Source: a virus
IMG/VR virus record: IMGVR_UViG_3300021168_000018
Direction: 5' to 3' (one strand)
DNA: 32,088 nucleotides
Both the position numbers and the translations under genes were made by a program. Of this stretch, positions 16,847 to 27,241 are shown in pieces. Each line of letters opens with the position of its first letter. Within the stretch, counting starts at the first letter, position 1. The notes below the pieces were generated by a model. The model was not told where the DNA came from, did no database searches, and saw only the letters and a list, made by a program, of their open reading frames with translations.

Positions 16847-16941
16847 TCACAGTGTGACGTTTATCTGCAATATCTTAGTATGTGGCACTAGAATTAGTAC
16901 CAATCCTATAGGAGCAGTAACGATAAGAAGATACGTTTCAT
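16847..16941 (-). pseudogene. Recombination scar: truncated signal-peptide start plus orphan C-terminal frame
   Basis: TAATG-coupled MKRIFLSLLLL* (16906-16941). Another frame reads IVTAPIGLVLILVPHTKILQINVTL* and ends at 16847, where TGAGG serves as the next gene's SD. Confidence 0.45.
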
Positions 16942-18344
16942 TAGAAAATTATCCCTTTCCCAGTAGCAGAAGCCAAAGCCGCCTTGAACGCAGAACTAAC
17001 AGAAGCGTATACACCCACTCCGGTTGTGCCATTGCTTGTATTCGTATAGGTGAACGATACCGCGCTGGTATTTGGATTATAATAAAGCGCCCTTCCATCG
17101 TCCTCATTCAACGTAGAAGCCCCACTTCCAGCTGGACAAGCGTTGTTGTTCCCGCTGTTCGTAGCTGCACCTGCATATATCCCGGGAGATGCCCCCGTGA
17201 CCGTACAAGAAAACCAAATCGCCGCGTTGAACACTAATCCATTCGACGTAGTTGGAGTGATGGATTGCGTCACCAAGCTACCGACAGTATTTTGCGTCCC
17301 GGTTGTGGTCGAATCCACGTCATGCGCGGAAGTAGCCGCTCCGGTTACGTCTACCATGACCAAGAAATTAAACCCCAGCGTATCCGTTCCACTATAGGTA
17401 GGGCTGAGGGTCAAGGTATTACTGCAAGTCGCGTTCGAGGAATAAAAAATCTGACCTATATCGGGTCCGCCCGCGTTGGTAACGCTCTGCCCGGTAGACC
17501 ACGTATTCGAGGGGCTAGAGCTTAAGGCGCTTAGGGTTACGGCGGCGCTGCTCCATACACCGACTAAAAGATTGCCCGCGCACGGAACCTGCATCGTGTG
17601 CGTGGTGGTGCCGAACGCCTCGCCCTGTAAGCCAATGACACGGATTCCCGTCGAGGAAGGAGCCGTACCTGTTGATGCCGGTTTCAATGCGATGGCCGTT
17701 GATTCCCAAGTGTCCGAATCCGAGGTCGTAAAGGAGGTTGTCTGCGAGCCAGAGGAACCAGTTACTTTATACTGAGCGAATGTTCCCGATCTGTTCGCGC
17801 TGAGGACCGTTCCTCCGCTACTGGTTGCCATGCTGGTGATTGTAGGAGTTAAGGTAGTAACATCAACGGCGGCATGATAAAGATAATCTCCCGAAACGGT
17901 AGTTGTTAACGTAACGCTACGAGTCGCAGAAGTGTTAGAAACATCTGACGTACAATCAGAGTTATAAAGCTCCACACCGCGAAAGGAAACCGTTCCCGAG
18001 CCACCAGAGGTAGTGGCCGTAATAACCTGTGAGCCAGCGGTAGCTATTCCACGGTAAGTGGCAAGAGTTTGAGCGTTGTTTGTAACGGTAGGCCCAAGGG
18101 TAAGCGTGTCACCTTTGTCGGTCTGCATGGCGCTGACCGTCATACCGGAGTCATGCTCCATGCTGATTGCTAGGCAGTTTCCCGACAATGTTTTGTTTGG
18201 AAACCAAGTCTTCGCGTTTGCCCCTGTAACTTGAGTGTTGTCTCGACCGCTGGAAAGGTACTGCACGACGGTCGGCGTCTGTGCCCAAGCGTGAGGAGCA
18301 TATAGCAGGCCAACTAACAGAAATAATACAATCCACCGTTTCAT
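16941..18344 (-). CDS. Sec-signal, S/T-rich protein with two virion-type beta-sandwich domains (467 aa)
   Basis: MKRWIVLFLLVGLLYAPHAWA|Q signal peptide; ATGA overlap with the upstream stop. Confidence 0.75.
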   Translation of the reverse strand: MKRWIVLFLLVGLLYAPHAWAQTPTVVQYLSSGRDNTQVTGANAKTWFPNKTLSGNCLAISMEHDSGMTVSAMQTDKGDTLTLGPTVTNNAQTLATYRGIATAGSQVITATTSGGSGTVSFRGVELYNSDCTSDVSNTSATRSVTLTTTVSGDYLYHAAVDVTTLTPTITSMATSSGGTVLSANRSGTFAQYKVTGSSGSQTTSFTTSDSDTWESTAIALKPASTGTAPSSTGIRVIGLQGEAFGTTTHTMQVPCAGNLLVGVWSSAAVTLSALSSSPSNTWSTGQSVTNAGGPDIGQIFYSSNATCSNTLTLSPTYSGTDTLGFNFLVMVDVTGAATSAHDVDSTTTGTQNTVGSLVTQSITPTTSNGLVFNAAIWFSCTVTGASPGIYAGAATNSGNNNACPAGSGASTLNEDDGRALYYNPNTSAVSFTYTNTSNGTTGVGVYASVSSAFKAALASATGKGIIF

Positions 18345-19096
18345 TGGGCACAATCCAGTTGGAACGTGATTTGCTTAGGACCGGAAATCGTCGTTATAAA
18401 AAATCCAAGTGTGTCGTTCGCAGAAAGCGTCGTCGATGTGAAGTCTGTTACCGTCGTCGAATCCACTTTCGTACCAGATGCCAACGAAACTCCGCTCGTA
18501 GAAATCGAATTTGAGCCAACTGTCGGAAGCGCAGTTCCACTGTTAATTCTAGCTGTCTTGATGGTCACGGTACCAGAGTCTGCCATGATGTGATAGCCAA
18601 TAATAGTACACGGAAATGGAACTGTAATATAACCGACTTCACTCGTCGTCAAAGCTGAGCCGGTTGCTACGTCTCCGAATGCCCATCCGAGTGTTCTAAC
18701 AACACCATGTTGGAACGCGAAATAATTGGTTCCGTCTGTATAAATCGTGGCTCCCTGACCTCCAGGGAGAGGCATACTAGCAGCCGCACTCACATAACTT
18801 GAACCATTAAAATAACTTATGTTAGAAGTCGTTGGGGTTATCGTTTGAAGGCCCGTACTGATATTTGTAATGTTCCAAACGACCCCTGCTCCACACGTGG
18901 ACGCATTTGGCATTGTCGGCGTCTGAGCAGAAGCGTTGCTCAATTGGACCAATTTCAAACTGTCAGCACAGGTTATTGGATAGTTGGAACCAGTCTGAAG
19001 ATTGATGCCAGAATTCGCTACAAAGACATTCTGCGCTTCTAGTGGCGAAGCCAGCATCGAAAGACACATCAGCAGAGCAAACAGCTTTCTTTTCAT
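18341..19096 (-). CDS. Sec-signal protein with phage structural-type domains (251 aa)
   Basis: SD AGGAG + MKRKLFALLMCLSMLASPLEA|Q; IYTDGTNYF motif; C-terminal GYITVPFPCTIIGYHIMADSG...LSANDTLGF domain. Confidence 0.75.
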   Translation of the reverse strand: MKRKLFALLMCLSMLASPLEAQNVFVANSGINLQTGSNYPITCADSLKLVQLSNASAQTPTMPNASTCGAGVVWNITNISTGLQTITPTTSNISYFNGSSYVSAAASMPLPGGQGATIYTDGTNYFAFQHGVVRTLGWAFGDVATGSALTTSEVGYITVPFPCTIIGYHIMADSGTVTIKTARINSGTALPTVGSNSISTSGVSLASGTKVDSTTVTDFTSTTLSANDTLGFFITTISGPKQITFQLDCAQ

Positions 19097-19186
19097 AGTG
19101 ACACTCCTATATTTAGAGTTACCAGTCTCATTTCCAGCGTTTGACCCTGTGTGGACATGATTCTGTGCCCATGTTGGAGTTGCCAT
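19097..19186 (-). pseudogene. In-frame relic N-terminus MATPTWAQNHVHTGSNAGNETGN
   Basis: Has its own SD (AGGAGG) and ATG; resembles the mature N-terminus of the 467-aa protein (QTPTVVQYLSSG..N..TG); runs into a GTAACTCTA motif and a new SD. Confidence 0.45.
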
Positions 19187-25759: not shown

Positions 25760-25760
25760 G

Positions 25761-26393
25761 TTAGTTCTTTCCCTTCATCTTGACTTTGATAACGGCCACG
25801 TTGGACGCCGCATCAGTGACGGTTACGGAGAATGTGAATGACCCAGATGCTGTCGGAGTACCAGACAAGACACCCGACACGCTGAGAGTTATCCCGGTTG
25901 GCAGAGCGCCTGAAGTCACAGCCCATTTGTAAGGAGCAAGACCGCCGGTCGCTACCAGAGTGGTCGAGTAGGCGGTTCCTATTGTCGCGCCGGGGAGACT
26001 GTTCGTTGTGATAGCTAGAGCAGCGTAGACGTTCATCGTGTACGCTTGCGTGATGGATACAGCCGGAGTCTCACTATCGGTCGCTTGGACAGTGAAAGAA
26101 AATGCTCCGGTAGCAGTTGGAGTGCCGGAAAAAACGCCAGTGGTGCTATTGAGCGAAATTCCCGCCGGGAGTGCTCCTGCCGAAATGCTGAATGAGTATG
26201 GCGATAATCCACCAGACGCGGCTATTGACGCCGTGTACGCTAGACCAATCATTCCGTTGGGAACGGTCGCTGTAGAAATCACGACGGTCCCGGCGGTCAC
26301 ATTAAGCGTAAGAGATTTCGAAACTGTATCTTGTGCCAAAGTGGGAATGGCGAACAATGACAACGCGAGAAACAGACCTAGATATTTTTTCAT
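25761..26393 (-). CDS. Sec-signal protein with two He_PIG Ig domains (210 aa)
   Basis: MKKYLGLFLALSLFAIPTLA|Q; two GGLxPYx(F/W)...GALPxGI...SGTPT units. Confidence 0.85.
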   Translation of the reverse strand: MKKYLGLFLALSLFAIPTLAQDTVSKSLTLNVTAGTVVISTATVPNGMIGLAYTASIAASGGLSPYSFSISAGALPAGISLNSTTGVFSGTPTATGAFSFTVQATDSETPAVSITQAYTMNVYAALAITTNSLPGATIGTAYSTTLVATGGLAPYKWAVTSGALPTGITLSVSGVLSGTPTASGSFTFSVTVTDAASNVAVIKVKMKGKN

Positions 26394-27241
26394 TAATTCC
26401 TCTTTGCTTTCACTATTCTCAAATTGACCCCTGACGAATCTGTAATCGTTATAGAGAAAGCCGCAGAACCTGAACCGGTCGGTGTCCCACTAAGAAGTCC
26501 GGAAGGAGATAGCGTCAATCCAGGCTGGATTGTGCCGCTAGTCACGGCGAAAGTGTATGGAGGCGTTCCGCCAGCGACACCCAAAACTGTCAGCAAATTT
26601 TGGGAATATGGAATTCCAATCGCTCCAGGTGGAAGGACACTAGTCCCGTTCAGTGTGATAACGGGTAACGGAGTCACTGTGATAGCTGCGGAAGCGGTCG
26701 TTGACGGATTGCTCTGCAACGCTGCGGTCACTGTGCAGATTCCGCCAGATGGAACAATTGATGGTGGGGTGTAGTTCCCGTTAGCGTCTACAGTCCCACA
26801 GCTTGCAGACCAGTTGACGCCGCTAGTTCCATTTGTAACCGTAGACGTCAGAGCTATCGTCGGAGATGCTTGTATGGACGCTGTAGACGGACTAACAGAT
26901 ATTGATGGAGGTGGTGGAGCGCCGCCGACAGTGAGAGTCACGACGTTGGAAATTGGGACAGCTGAACCGCCAGCGCATCCGTACATCTCTGCCTGTACAG
27001 TCGTACCATTCTGAGACACTGTGACATTGGGAATCTGGAAACTAATCGTCGAAGCGATAGCGCCATAGACTCCCTTACCATTGACCAGCCAGTAGCTACG
27101 ACACGGACCGCCACTGACAGTGACAGTGAACGTGGCAGTCTGGCCGACCTGGACAGTTTGGCTGGTCGGCTGCTGAGTTATAGACTGCGACTTAGCTAGA
27201 GGTGCTAGAGCCAGTAGCAAGAATGACAGGAATCTTTTCAC
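26393..27241 (-). CDS. Sec-signal protein with Ig + Big-like + He_PIG domains (282 aa)
   Basis: GTG at 27241 after AGGGG; MKRFLSFLLLALAPLAKS|Q; ITQQPTSQTVQVGQTATFTV; SISVSPSTASI; GGTPPYTFAV...SGTPT. Confidence 0.8.
   Translation of the reverse strand: MKRFLSFLLLALAPLAKSQSITQQPTSQTVQVGQTATFTVTVSGGPCRSYWLVNGKGVYGAIASTISFQIPNVTVSQNGTTVQAEMYGCAGGSAVPISNVVTLTVGGAPPPPSISVSPSTASIQASPTIALTSTVTNGTSGVNWSASCGTVDANGNYTPPSIVPSGGICTVTAALQSNPSTTASAAITVTPLPVITLNGTSVLPPGAIGIPYSQNLLTVLGVAGGTPPYTFAVTSGTIQPGLTLSPSGLLSGTPTGSGSAAFSITITDSSGVNLRIVKAKRN

Follow-up and report, generated by a model that had tools for sequence, protein, structure and literature searches.

Predicted Sec-exported proteins with fibre-type, β-helix and Ig-like modules in the late gene region of a probable Acidobacteriota phage

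Several kinds of phage protein are known to leave the host cytoplasm, including exclusion lipoproteins, XepA and prophage toxins. T5 Llp, lambda Bor and Lom, and Cor are sent to the envelope, where they block receptors or change the cell surface; these are small lipoproteins or outer-membrane proteins, not fibre or enzyme modules, and they are mostly expressed early or from prophages. Here we analyse a 32,088-nucleotide stretch (the window) of the IMG/VR virus record IMGVR_UViG_3300021168_000018, in which five genes of the morphogenesis region encode proteins of 467, 251, 651, 210 and 282 residues with predicted Sec signal peptides. Our favoured reading, which we hold at a probability of roughly 0.45, is that the five are non-virion proteins, exported late in infection by way of Sec and signal peptidase I (SPI), that would bind polysaccharide on the host's surface and cut it.

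Each component has been described before: phage accessory proteins with Sec leaders, depolymerases that are soluble, and folds of fibre and Ig-like type. XepA of the Bacillus subtilis PBSX element is exported and is absent from particles (PMC6834076). Its β-sandwich aligns with the 251-aa protein's C-terminal domain at a borderline Z of 8.3 (rmsd, root-mean-square deviation, 3.1 over 98 residues), as does, at the same borderline Z, YomS of SPβ. XepA, however, belongs to a Gram-positive host and to a lysis cassette, and forms a pentameric dumbbell with no enzyme partner, whereas the window has five proteins of several families and a diderm host. The PghP and LevP enzymes, encoded by Bacillus phage phiNIT1, are soluble, host-derived and non-structural, and degrade matrix outside the cell (PMC6966330); they differ from the window proteins in folds and substrates and in being released by the burst, with no Sec route described (PMC6966330). 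Porphyromonas gingivalis phages encode signal-peptide proteins with Gln at +1, which were read as an adaptation to host secretion and as possible surface modifiers (PMC10367356). The Q-rule, a Gln at +1 of most SPI substrates together with a glutaminyl cyclase, was described as specific to Bacteroidetes (PMC5837995). Those phage proteins, of unknown function, resemble the five described here in their SPI leaders and N-terminal Gln; they differ in belonging to Bacteroidota prophages, in having unknown domains and in that no link to fibre folds or polysaccharide loci was reported. A literature search found no account of Sec-exported, Cys-paired arrays of tail-fibre, tailspike and Ig-like modules within a late operon. 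The whole picture, with such arrays recurring in Acidobacteriota phages, related genes among the polysaccharide loci of hosts, and leaders gained or lost between close relatives, therefore seems undescribed.

The window covers bases 31496–63583 of a 91,991-bp viral record (49% GC; 65% complete by CheckV), in which nearly all genes lie on the minus strand. A megablast of the whole stretch against GenBank phages gave no match. The phage is an uncultured one from soil, and its host, assigned from homologues alone, is probably an Acidobacteriota (Terriglobia-type) bacterium. In transcription order, the genes for TerL and a 1332-aa portal protein, both outside the window, are followed by two small signal-bearing genes, the window and the head-tail genes, and then by an 826-aa tape measure and large tail-tip proteins (942, 532 and 537 aa). 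The window encodes an 851-aa prohead protease fusion as well as the major capsid protein, which is Mu gpT-like, and the five leader genes sit between portal and prohead protease. Promoter- and terminator-like sites around them occur at chance level and their starts are coupled, so that we read the five as parts of a long late transcription unit; the idea that they are autonomous moron units was dropped, as these sites do not exceed chance.

All five genes are on the minus strand, and each encodes a leader with a K/R n-region, a hydrophobic core of 8–12 residues, a small-x-small site and Gln at +1. Cleavage (marked by a slash) is predicted at HAWA/QTPT in the 467-aa protein (16941–18344), PLEA/QNVF in the 251-aa protein (18341–19096), PVYG/QGSA in the 651-aa protein (19199–21154), PTLA/QDTV in the 210-aa protein (25761–26393) and LAKS/QSIT in the 282-aa protein (26393–27241, GTG start). 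Leaders of this class are expected to have a positive n-region, a hydrophobic h-region of 7–15 residues and small residues at −3 and −1; we scored them with our own von Heijne-type heuristic, at a threshold of 4.4. None of the 109 open reading frames (ORFs) of at least 80 aa on the non-coding strand of the 92-kb genome reached it. On the coding strand eight ORFs did: the five window proteins (4.4–6.0), two small genes outside the window and a leader-like match at 1770–2525, which we rejected as artefactual, since that frame reads into the split capsid gene. Of the seven real hits, five lie together in a single block of 12 genes (hypergeometric P = 7.5e-5; about 0.008 once the roughly 110 possible blocks are taken into account).

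Every one of the five starts also has a Shine-Dalgarno (SD) sequence before it or is coupled to the gene ahead. In the 282-aa gene, AAGGGGA precedes the GTG. The 210-aa gene has AAGAGGA and a TAATG overlap with the 282-aa gene, and the 651-aa gene has TAGGAG and an ATGA overlap with the stop of a 113-aa gene. Ahead of the 251-aa gene lies AGGAG, and its stop is coupled by an ATGA overlap to the start of the 467-aa gene. Among homologues the leader sequences vary, and the mature N-termini are strictly conserved, beginning at the predicted cut, as in the motifs A/QTPTLVQH of the 467 family and A/Q-x-WSG of the 651 family. Across three large families the heuristic signal is present in 23/38, 43/61 and 91/119 members, the last being the 651 family, and many of the members missed by the strict heuristic are truncated or are evident false negatives. 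On two other viral contigs (L001 and L002), homologues of the 651-aa protein keep their leaders and the same A/QLWSG cut while only 49–51% identical to it, which argues that the leaders are real and under selection. Gln at +1 is also common in the three large families. In a 400-kb sample of one complete Acidobacteriaceae genome (G170; L050–L069) it follows 4 of 29 heuristic leaders, a count from a crude method that gives no rate; in 5–6 more leaders of the sample FA/Q or WA/Q lies just downstream of the called site.

Three further proteins of the record have features of exported proteins. Directly after the portal gene, G000:C1:68895-69329 and 69342-69665 (minus strand) encode proteins of 144 and 107 aa with strong Sec leaders; the predicted cut lies before a Gln in the 107-aa protein and one residue before a Gln in the 144-aa protein (Gln at +2). 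Neither has a PHROG match, and similar small signal-bearing genes occur in a related phage, G001. A 224-aa protein (window 29791–30465, minus strand) has a twin-arginine-like D-R-R-E-W-F-L, a mildly hydrophobic stretch and T-S-A/Q, followed by an Ala/Ile/Leu-rich remainder, and may be a sixth exported protein, of the twin-arginine (Tat) type and again with Gln at +1. A 97-aa protein of L002 begins with a more clearly Tat-like sequence, RRKFFK.

The cysteine content of the five proteins fits an oxidising compartment. Their mature parts hold 6 (467 aa), 4 (251 aa), 14 (651 aa), 0 (210 aa) and 4 (282 aa) cysteines; the combined count for the exported five is 24. Five signal-less neighbours (439, 1177, 127, 113 and 129 aa) have 5 cysteines in 1985 residues, with 1 in the 1177-aa and 3 in the 439-aa protein. 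Within the 467 family, C57-C131, C255-C307 and C380-C403 are retained or lost pairwise, and in P0034 and P0037, phage homologues that have no signal, the pairs are broken. In the 651 family 8 of the 14 cysteines are nearly invariant. The 251-aa protein has one pair per domain, and the four cysteines of the 282-aa protein form two within-domain pairs.

These observations bear on whether the leaders serve export at all. They could instead be membrane anchors, capsid-targeting or protease-removed peptides, or remnants, functionless in the phage, of genes taken from a host. In favour of such roles, the five genes stand at a position, between portal and prohead protease, that often encodes packaged proteins, and a 281-aa form of the 251-aa protein, read from an upstream ATG, would bury its leader behind 30 extra residues. 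The full n/h/c layout speaks against this, since it is shared with chromosomal homologues that have no capsid, and so do the retention of leaders in the divergent phage homologues and the cysteine pairing, which argues for an oxidising compartment. Known capsid-targeting peptides, including those of T4 internal proteins, moreover, are not hydrophobic Sec-like leaders. We consider any of these non-export roles highly improbable.

To relate the five proteins to known folds, we combined structure models with family searches. The 251-aa protein was modelled with high confidence (pLDDT, predicted local distance difference test, 92) as two domains: residues 28–132 form a tailspike-type β-sandwich and residues 131–251 a jelly-roll of tail-fibre-tip type. 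In VIA comparisons, where the background lies at about Z 7–8, the N-terminal domain matched at Z 10.2–12.0 (rmsd 1.6–2.2 over 88–95 residues), best with Solidus gp83 (12.0), the Pa223 capsid spike (11.9), a KP1 baseplate protein (11.6) and CBA120 TSP4 (11.0). The C-terminal domain matched the tail fibre of phage 7-7-1 at Z 9.1. Searched against BFVD, the whole model gave tail-fibre, collagen and BclB-type matches at probability 1.0. The C-terminal domain is common to dozens of differently built proteins, at 60–79% identity, which have collagen-like or fibre-repeat stems and most of which bear signals. The 467-aa protein is predicted to form two β-sandwich domains of about 200 aa (pLDDT 89.9). 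Its model matched actinophage 'minor tail protein' entries of BFVD (Foldseek probability 1.0, E 1e-18 to 1e-8), in single-domain alignments with rmsd 3.8–5 over about 220 columns to targets that are themselves predicted and named by annotation only. Against solved structures it gave Foldseek TM-scores below 0.2 and VIA-wide Z below 4, thus no solved relative, and it had no match in PHROG.

The 651-aa protein is tentatively assigned from its family relatives to the right-handed β-helices of pectate-lyase/RHGA type, and is a candidate polysaccharide hydrolase or lyase. Its family comprises more than 577 proteins, with PF12708 or PF13229 present in some, and the named members come from Acidobacteria and Terracidiphilus. 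Its Atlas look-alikes (0.98–0.99) are PF12708 pectate-lyase-superfamily β-helix clusters, mostly from Acidobacteriota and one of them mostly viral; its own TIGR03805 match is weak, at 25.7 bits for a cut-off of 141.5. The 210-aa protein has two He_PIG Ig-like domains (PF05345, 102 bits; cut-off 24), and its Atlas look-alike clusters are 100% bacterial He_PIG proteins. The 282-aa protein is Ig-like, with a Pfam Ig_3 score of 27.2 bits below the cut-off of 30 and a match to phrog_3995 'tail protein' (3.7e-9); its C-terminal part is He_PIG-like, a membership that comes from BLASTP to the 210-aa (1.4e-16) and 113-aa proteins only. Sequence searches of the PDB with the 651-, 467-, 251- and 283-aa proteins, and with a profile of the 651 family, found nothing.

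The original prediction had named five Sec-leader proteins with Gln at +1, several with paired cysteines and two, of 251 and 467 aa, with virion-type domains, all inside a structural gene region. The leaders stand, by their layout, the controls and the credible starts, and paired cysteines occur in four of the five, the 210-aa protein having none. The models agree on the domains, with tailspike and fibre matches at Z 9–12 for one protein and, for the other, 'minor tail' matches to predicted structures at Foldseek probability 1.0. The region is structural, with portal and TerL upstream and prohead protease, capsid and tape measure downstream.

Folds of this kind raise the possibility that the five proteins mature in the periplasm and then dock on finished particles at lysis as receptor-binding parts. 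Tailspike, tail-fibre and minor-tail folds are what would be expected of such parts, and particles in vitro accept added T4 fibres and P22 tailspikes. The virion tailspikes and fibres of CBA120 (TSP4), Acinetobacter phage Solidus (gp83) and Agrobacterium phage 7-7-1 have the same folds as the 251-aa protein, and the 651-aa protein probably belongs to the β-helix class typical of virion tailspikes. Those virion proteins, in contrast, lack a signal peptide, bind the particle through N-terminal parts and undergo assembly in the cytoplasm. In all five window proteins the leader directly precedes the family-conserved domain, with no N-terminal stem or adaptor by which to join a particle; in the 651-aa protein just about 18 further residues separate the two. 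Signal-less relatives with a 251-type tip have long stems, as in a 654-aa protein of G170. We know of no tailed phage that routes a virion protein through Sec, and signal-less candidates for the particle are available in the 1177-, 439-, 942-, 532- and 537-aa proteins.

Related phages show how variable this part of the genome is. The 104-kb relative G001, whose head proteins are 47–82% identical to those of the window phage, has its 283-aa and 521-aa homologues only 128 bp apart, so that the 145-, 282- and 210-aa genes represent an insertion that G001 lacks. Between its 521- and 129-aa homologues, where the window has twelve genes, G001 has three small genes and one signal-less protein of seemingly about 900 aa, read across contig ends, with a weak DUF4185 match and an Asp-box-like motif found by eye. 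Because G001 is without the first insertion and has different content in the second place, both signal-peptide clusters are, by this comparison of gene orders, sitting in exchangeable cassettes. The conserved 521-aa gene is the anchor that separates them. The outright absence of the 210- and 282-aa genes from G001 speaks against docking; that relatives carry a signal-less fibre-like protein at the same hypervariable place of the late operon speaks for it.

When viral contigs were scanned with the 467-, 251- and 282-aa proteins singly, nothing was found; the families recur elsewhere in arrays. The viral contig L001 (IMGVR_UViG_3300020583_000139) has five consecutive signal-bearing genes (L001:523-14846, plus strand), encoding a 2562-aa fibre-like protein, a 583-aa member of the 467 family, a 703-aa member of the 651 family, and proteins of 125 and 802 aa. 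The 2562-aa protein has 41 cysteines, and small membrane-protein genes after the array look like a lysis cassette. In L002 (complete, 118.8 kb), a signal-bearing β-helix is followed by the signal-less 467-family protein P0034. The 583-aa protein and P0034 are mutual best matches at 38% identity, with a leader in the former and none in the latter, and the neighbouring β-helices of the two phages are 89.5% identical. The fibre region of L002 also encodes a 564-aa protein (L002:6994-8688, plus strand) with an ice-binding-like domain (PF11999, 173 bits). In G170, a lambda-like prophage tail module (phrog_5616, phrog_31, phrog_2048) with a J-like tail fibre leads into the 654-aa signal-less fibre with its 251-type tip, then a 231-aa signal-bearing 467-type domain and a 569-aa signal-bearing protein of TIG and β-helix type, in which PF08480 scores above its cut-off. 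On gene content, the tie of these families, leaders included, to phage tail regions is conserved across unrelated phages.

Two short remnants flank the 251- and 467-aa genes. Ahead of the 251-aa start, on the minus strand, lie 30 in-frame codons (19097–19186) with their own strong SD, AAGGAGG, and an ATG at 19186; the first 23 match the 5′ end of the signal-less gene for P0034. If used, this ATG would give the 281-aa form, with a long n-region, that the gene callers report (P0040). Judged by that match, 19097–19186 is a recombination scar. At the other end, a 12-codon stump (16906–16941, minus strand; M-K-R-I-F-L-S-L-L-L-L-stop) overlaps the 467-aa stop in a TAATG and resembles the first codons of one more signal-peptide gene, cut short, at the downstream edge of an imported block. 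Together, the two stumps suggest that a block of the 251- and 467-aa genes replaced the body of a signal-less homologue.

Such a replacement of a signal-less homologue by signal-bearing ones is again what docking at lysis would lead one to expect, as are the presence of members with and without a signal in one subfamily and the signal on the 2562-aa fibre-like protein of L001. Set against these are the points given above and the chromosomal homologues described below, which work without a particle, and we regard docking as unlikely. A related possibility is that a tailed phage lineage sends part of its host-recognition modules through Sec, to mature with disulfides in the periplasm and join particles once lysis mixes the compartments, and that gain or loss of the leader toggles a module between cytoplasmic and periplasmic assembly among close homologues. 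We hold this to be rather unlikely.

Homologues also occur in bacterial chromosomes. A scan of a genome collection found signal-bearing 467 homologues, 50% identical, on large contigs of two Acidobacteriota metagenome-assembled genomes (L003 and L004), with 57–59% GC and no phage genes nearby. The L003 homologue makes up the N-terminal portion of a 1407-aa protein that has seven TIG domains and whose gene is flanked by those for Wzz/GNVR, GT9 and UDP-glucose dehydrogenase. The 651 homologues of the Acidobacteriaceae G271 and G007 adjoin Wzy_C, an Asn-synthase-type amidotransferase, GT2/GT4 and UDP-glucose dehydrogenase. The host copies thus lie in exopolysaccharide or O-antigen loci, in few genomes only; 251-type domains occur in 11 of 201 genomes. 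When other genes of the window phage were sought near the bacterial 651 homologues, none was found. AlgL, PslG and BcsZ are signal-bearing periplasmic glycanases encoded in host polysaccharide operons. The 651 host homologues resemble them in locus context, differ from them in fold and family, and would resemble them in activity if the 651 family is enzymatic.

Chromosomal relatives invite the view that the five genes are auxiliary carbohydrate-active or adhesion genes (morons) of benefit to the infected or lysogenic cell and not to the lytic cycle, for polysaccharide foraging in soil, adhesion or a change in biofilm. All the families are typical of bacterial secreted proteins, the exclusively bacterial look-alikes of the 210-aa protein among them, and the signal-bearing genes of G170 follow a tail fibre gene, the classical moron position. 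Soil viruses have been reported to carry glycoside hydrolases as auxiliary metabolic genes, as cited in PMC11924767. But a search of the record, at 65% completeness, found no integrase or resolvase, the genes are translationally coupled within a late operon with promoter- and terminator-like sites at chance, and their partners are fibre-type modules, not metabolic enzymes. A benefit to the host cell seems to us quite unlikely as their role.

The favoured reading, export of non-virion proteins that act on host surface polysaccharide, draws on leaders and disulfide pairs that appear real and selected, the absence of a stem or adaptor, relatives in polysaccharide loci, dispensability, and the precedents described above. 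Late in infection, the proteins would enter the periplasm, lose their leaders to expose a new N-terminal Gln, and fold with disulfides. The 651-aa protein, as a putative β-helix enzyme, would cut or modify the host's surface polysaccharide, and the lectin-like modules of the 251-, 467-, 210- and 282-aa proteins would bind the polymer or envelope components. Wzy-type polymers are assembled on the periplasmic face of the inner membrane, and a periplasmic β-helix enzyme with lectin-like partners could intercept them there. The pay-off might be that the surface of the infected cell, and of the debris it leaves, is stripped or changed, so that the matrix is easier to leave, fewer progeny are lost to debris and other phages are kept out.

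A number of observations weigh against this reading. Sec export is predicted by our own heuristic alone, and a Sec leader would carry a protein only as far as the periplasm of a diderm cell; the reading leaves unexplained how the protein would travel from there to the polymer at the surface. The folds of three of the five are familiar mainly as those of virion tail fibres and tailspikes, and the 38%-identical pair with and without a signal indicates that export may not be essential to function. The 651-aa protein has no Pfam match of its own, and no catalytic residues were identified in it by Pfam, PDB sequence and profile searches. Host homologues are rare (2 of 151 genomes across the phylum, 4 of 121 in the family), so that the link to polysaccharide loci consists of a few cases. 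Finally, GC at third codon positions (GC3) in the five genes is 0.40–0.53, which is phage-like, and the host loci have 55–63% GC overall. Recent capture from a host was rejected on this ground, and the five genes have thus resided in the phage for long.

The original prediction offered two outcomes: parts that mature in the periplasm and attach to particles, or a host surface remodelled by the phage. The data are consistent with this pair of alternatives and do not choose between them. Surface action is favoured by the homologues in polysaccharide loci, the lack of a stem and the absence of the two Ig-like genes from G001; attachment is kept in play by the tail-fibre and tailspike folds and by the signal-less P0034, which a related phage encodes at a comparable position. 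Homologues with and without signal peptides, for which it had proposed a search, do exist, in the 583-aa protein of L001 and P0034. It had also allowed that the closest relatives might be host secreted proteins with no phage-linked conservation. Close homologues do include host secreted proteins, and L001, L002 and the G170 prophage conserve the families in phages.

Several genes between and beside the leader genes, all on the minus strand, encode proteins without a leader. The 1177- and 439-aa proteins (11596–16450) are fibre-like and poor in cysteine, and match PHROG virion structural and minor tail families (phrog_553, 1.8e-8; phrog_2804, 3e-8); the former has an N-terminal 'minor tail' PHROG domain followed by about 20 repeats. 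Both probably belong to the particle. They had been thought similar in character to the leader proteins, which holds for the PHROG links to structural and minor tail proteins and not for the sequences compared directly, as hhalign of the 467 family with the 1177-aa N-terminus and the 439-aa protein found nothing. No relative of the 1177-aa protein was found in five related viral records. The 113-aa protein (21151–21492) is a He_PIG Ig-like protein (PF05345, 44.3 bits; cut-off 24) related to the 210-aa protein (BLASTP 1.4e-20). Upstream of the second cassette, a 409-aa protein (21493–22722) combines weak TPR matches with a GT9-like part of the heptosyltransferase family (PF01075, 23.1 bits for a cut-off of 22; TIGR02193 weak); it showed no similarity to the GT9 of the L003 host locus. 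The 521-aa anchor (24194–25759) is an InPase-domain protein of minor-head or packaged type (PF18823, 132.5 bits), matches PHROG minor head and virion structural families, and has a homologue in G001. An NCBIfam search gave weak matches only.

Base composition differs along this region. The cassette genes for the 439-, 1177-, 127-, 251-, 651- and 113-aa proteins (window 11596–21492, minus strand) have GC3 values of 0.34–0.43, compared with 0.51–0.62 in the head genes, and the 467-aa gene is an outlier among them at 0.52; the differences hint at a mosaic origin of the cassette. A gene of NinI-like or metallophosphoesterase type (window 10496–11197, minus strand) is found close to the fibre and signal-peptide cassette, and a gene of this kind likewise lies near the cassette of the unrelated G170 prophage (L047:953-1741, minus strand). 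Further along, the major capsid gene (window 1770–3711, minus strand) is split into an N-part (3247–3711) and a C-part (1770–2558), with an HNH/NUMOD3 ORF (2555–3223, minus strand) between them and a group I intron match at 2515–2772 (Rfam, 28.9 bits, E 3.9e-5, under the gathering score). The capsid gene is unsplit in G001.

Cultured Acidobacteriota phage-host pairs exist (PMC11924767), which makes the question testable. If the proteins instead act on particles, they would be an exception to the rule that tailed-phage virions are assembled wholly in the cytoplasm. If host exopolysaccharide is digested or masked from inside the envelope, soil phages would have a route of escape from the thick matrix of an abundant phylum, and the 651 family would be a candidate polysaccharide-active enzyme family tied to the polysaccharide loci of its hosts.

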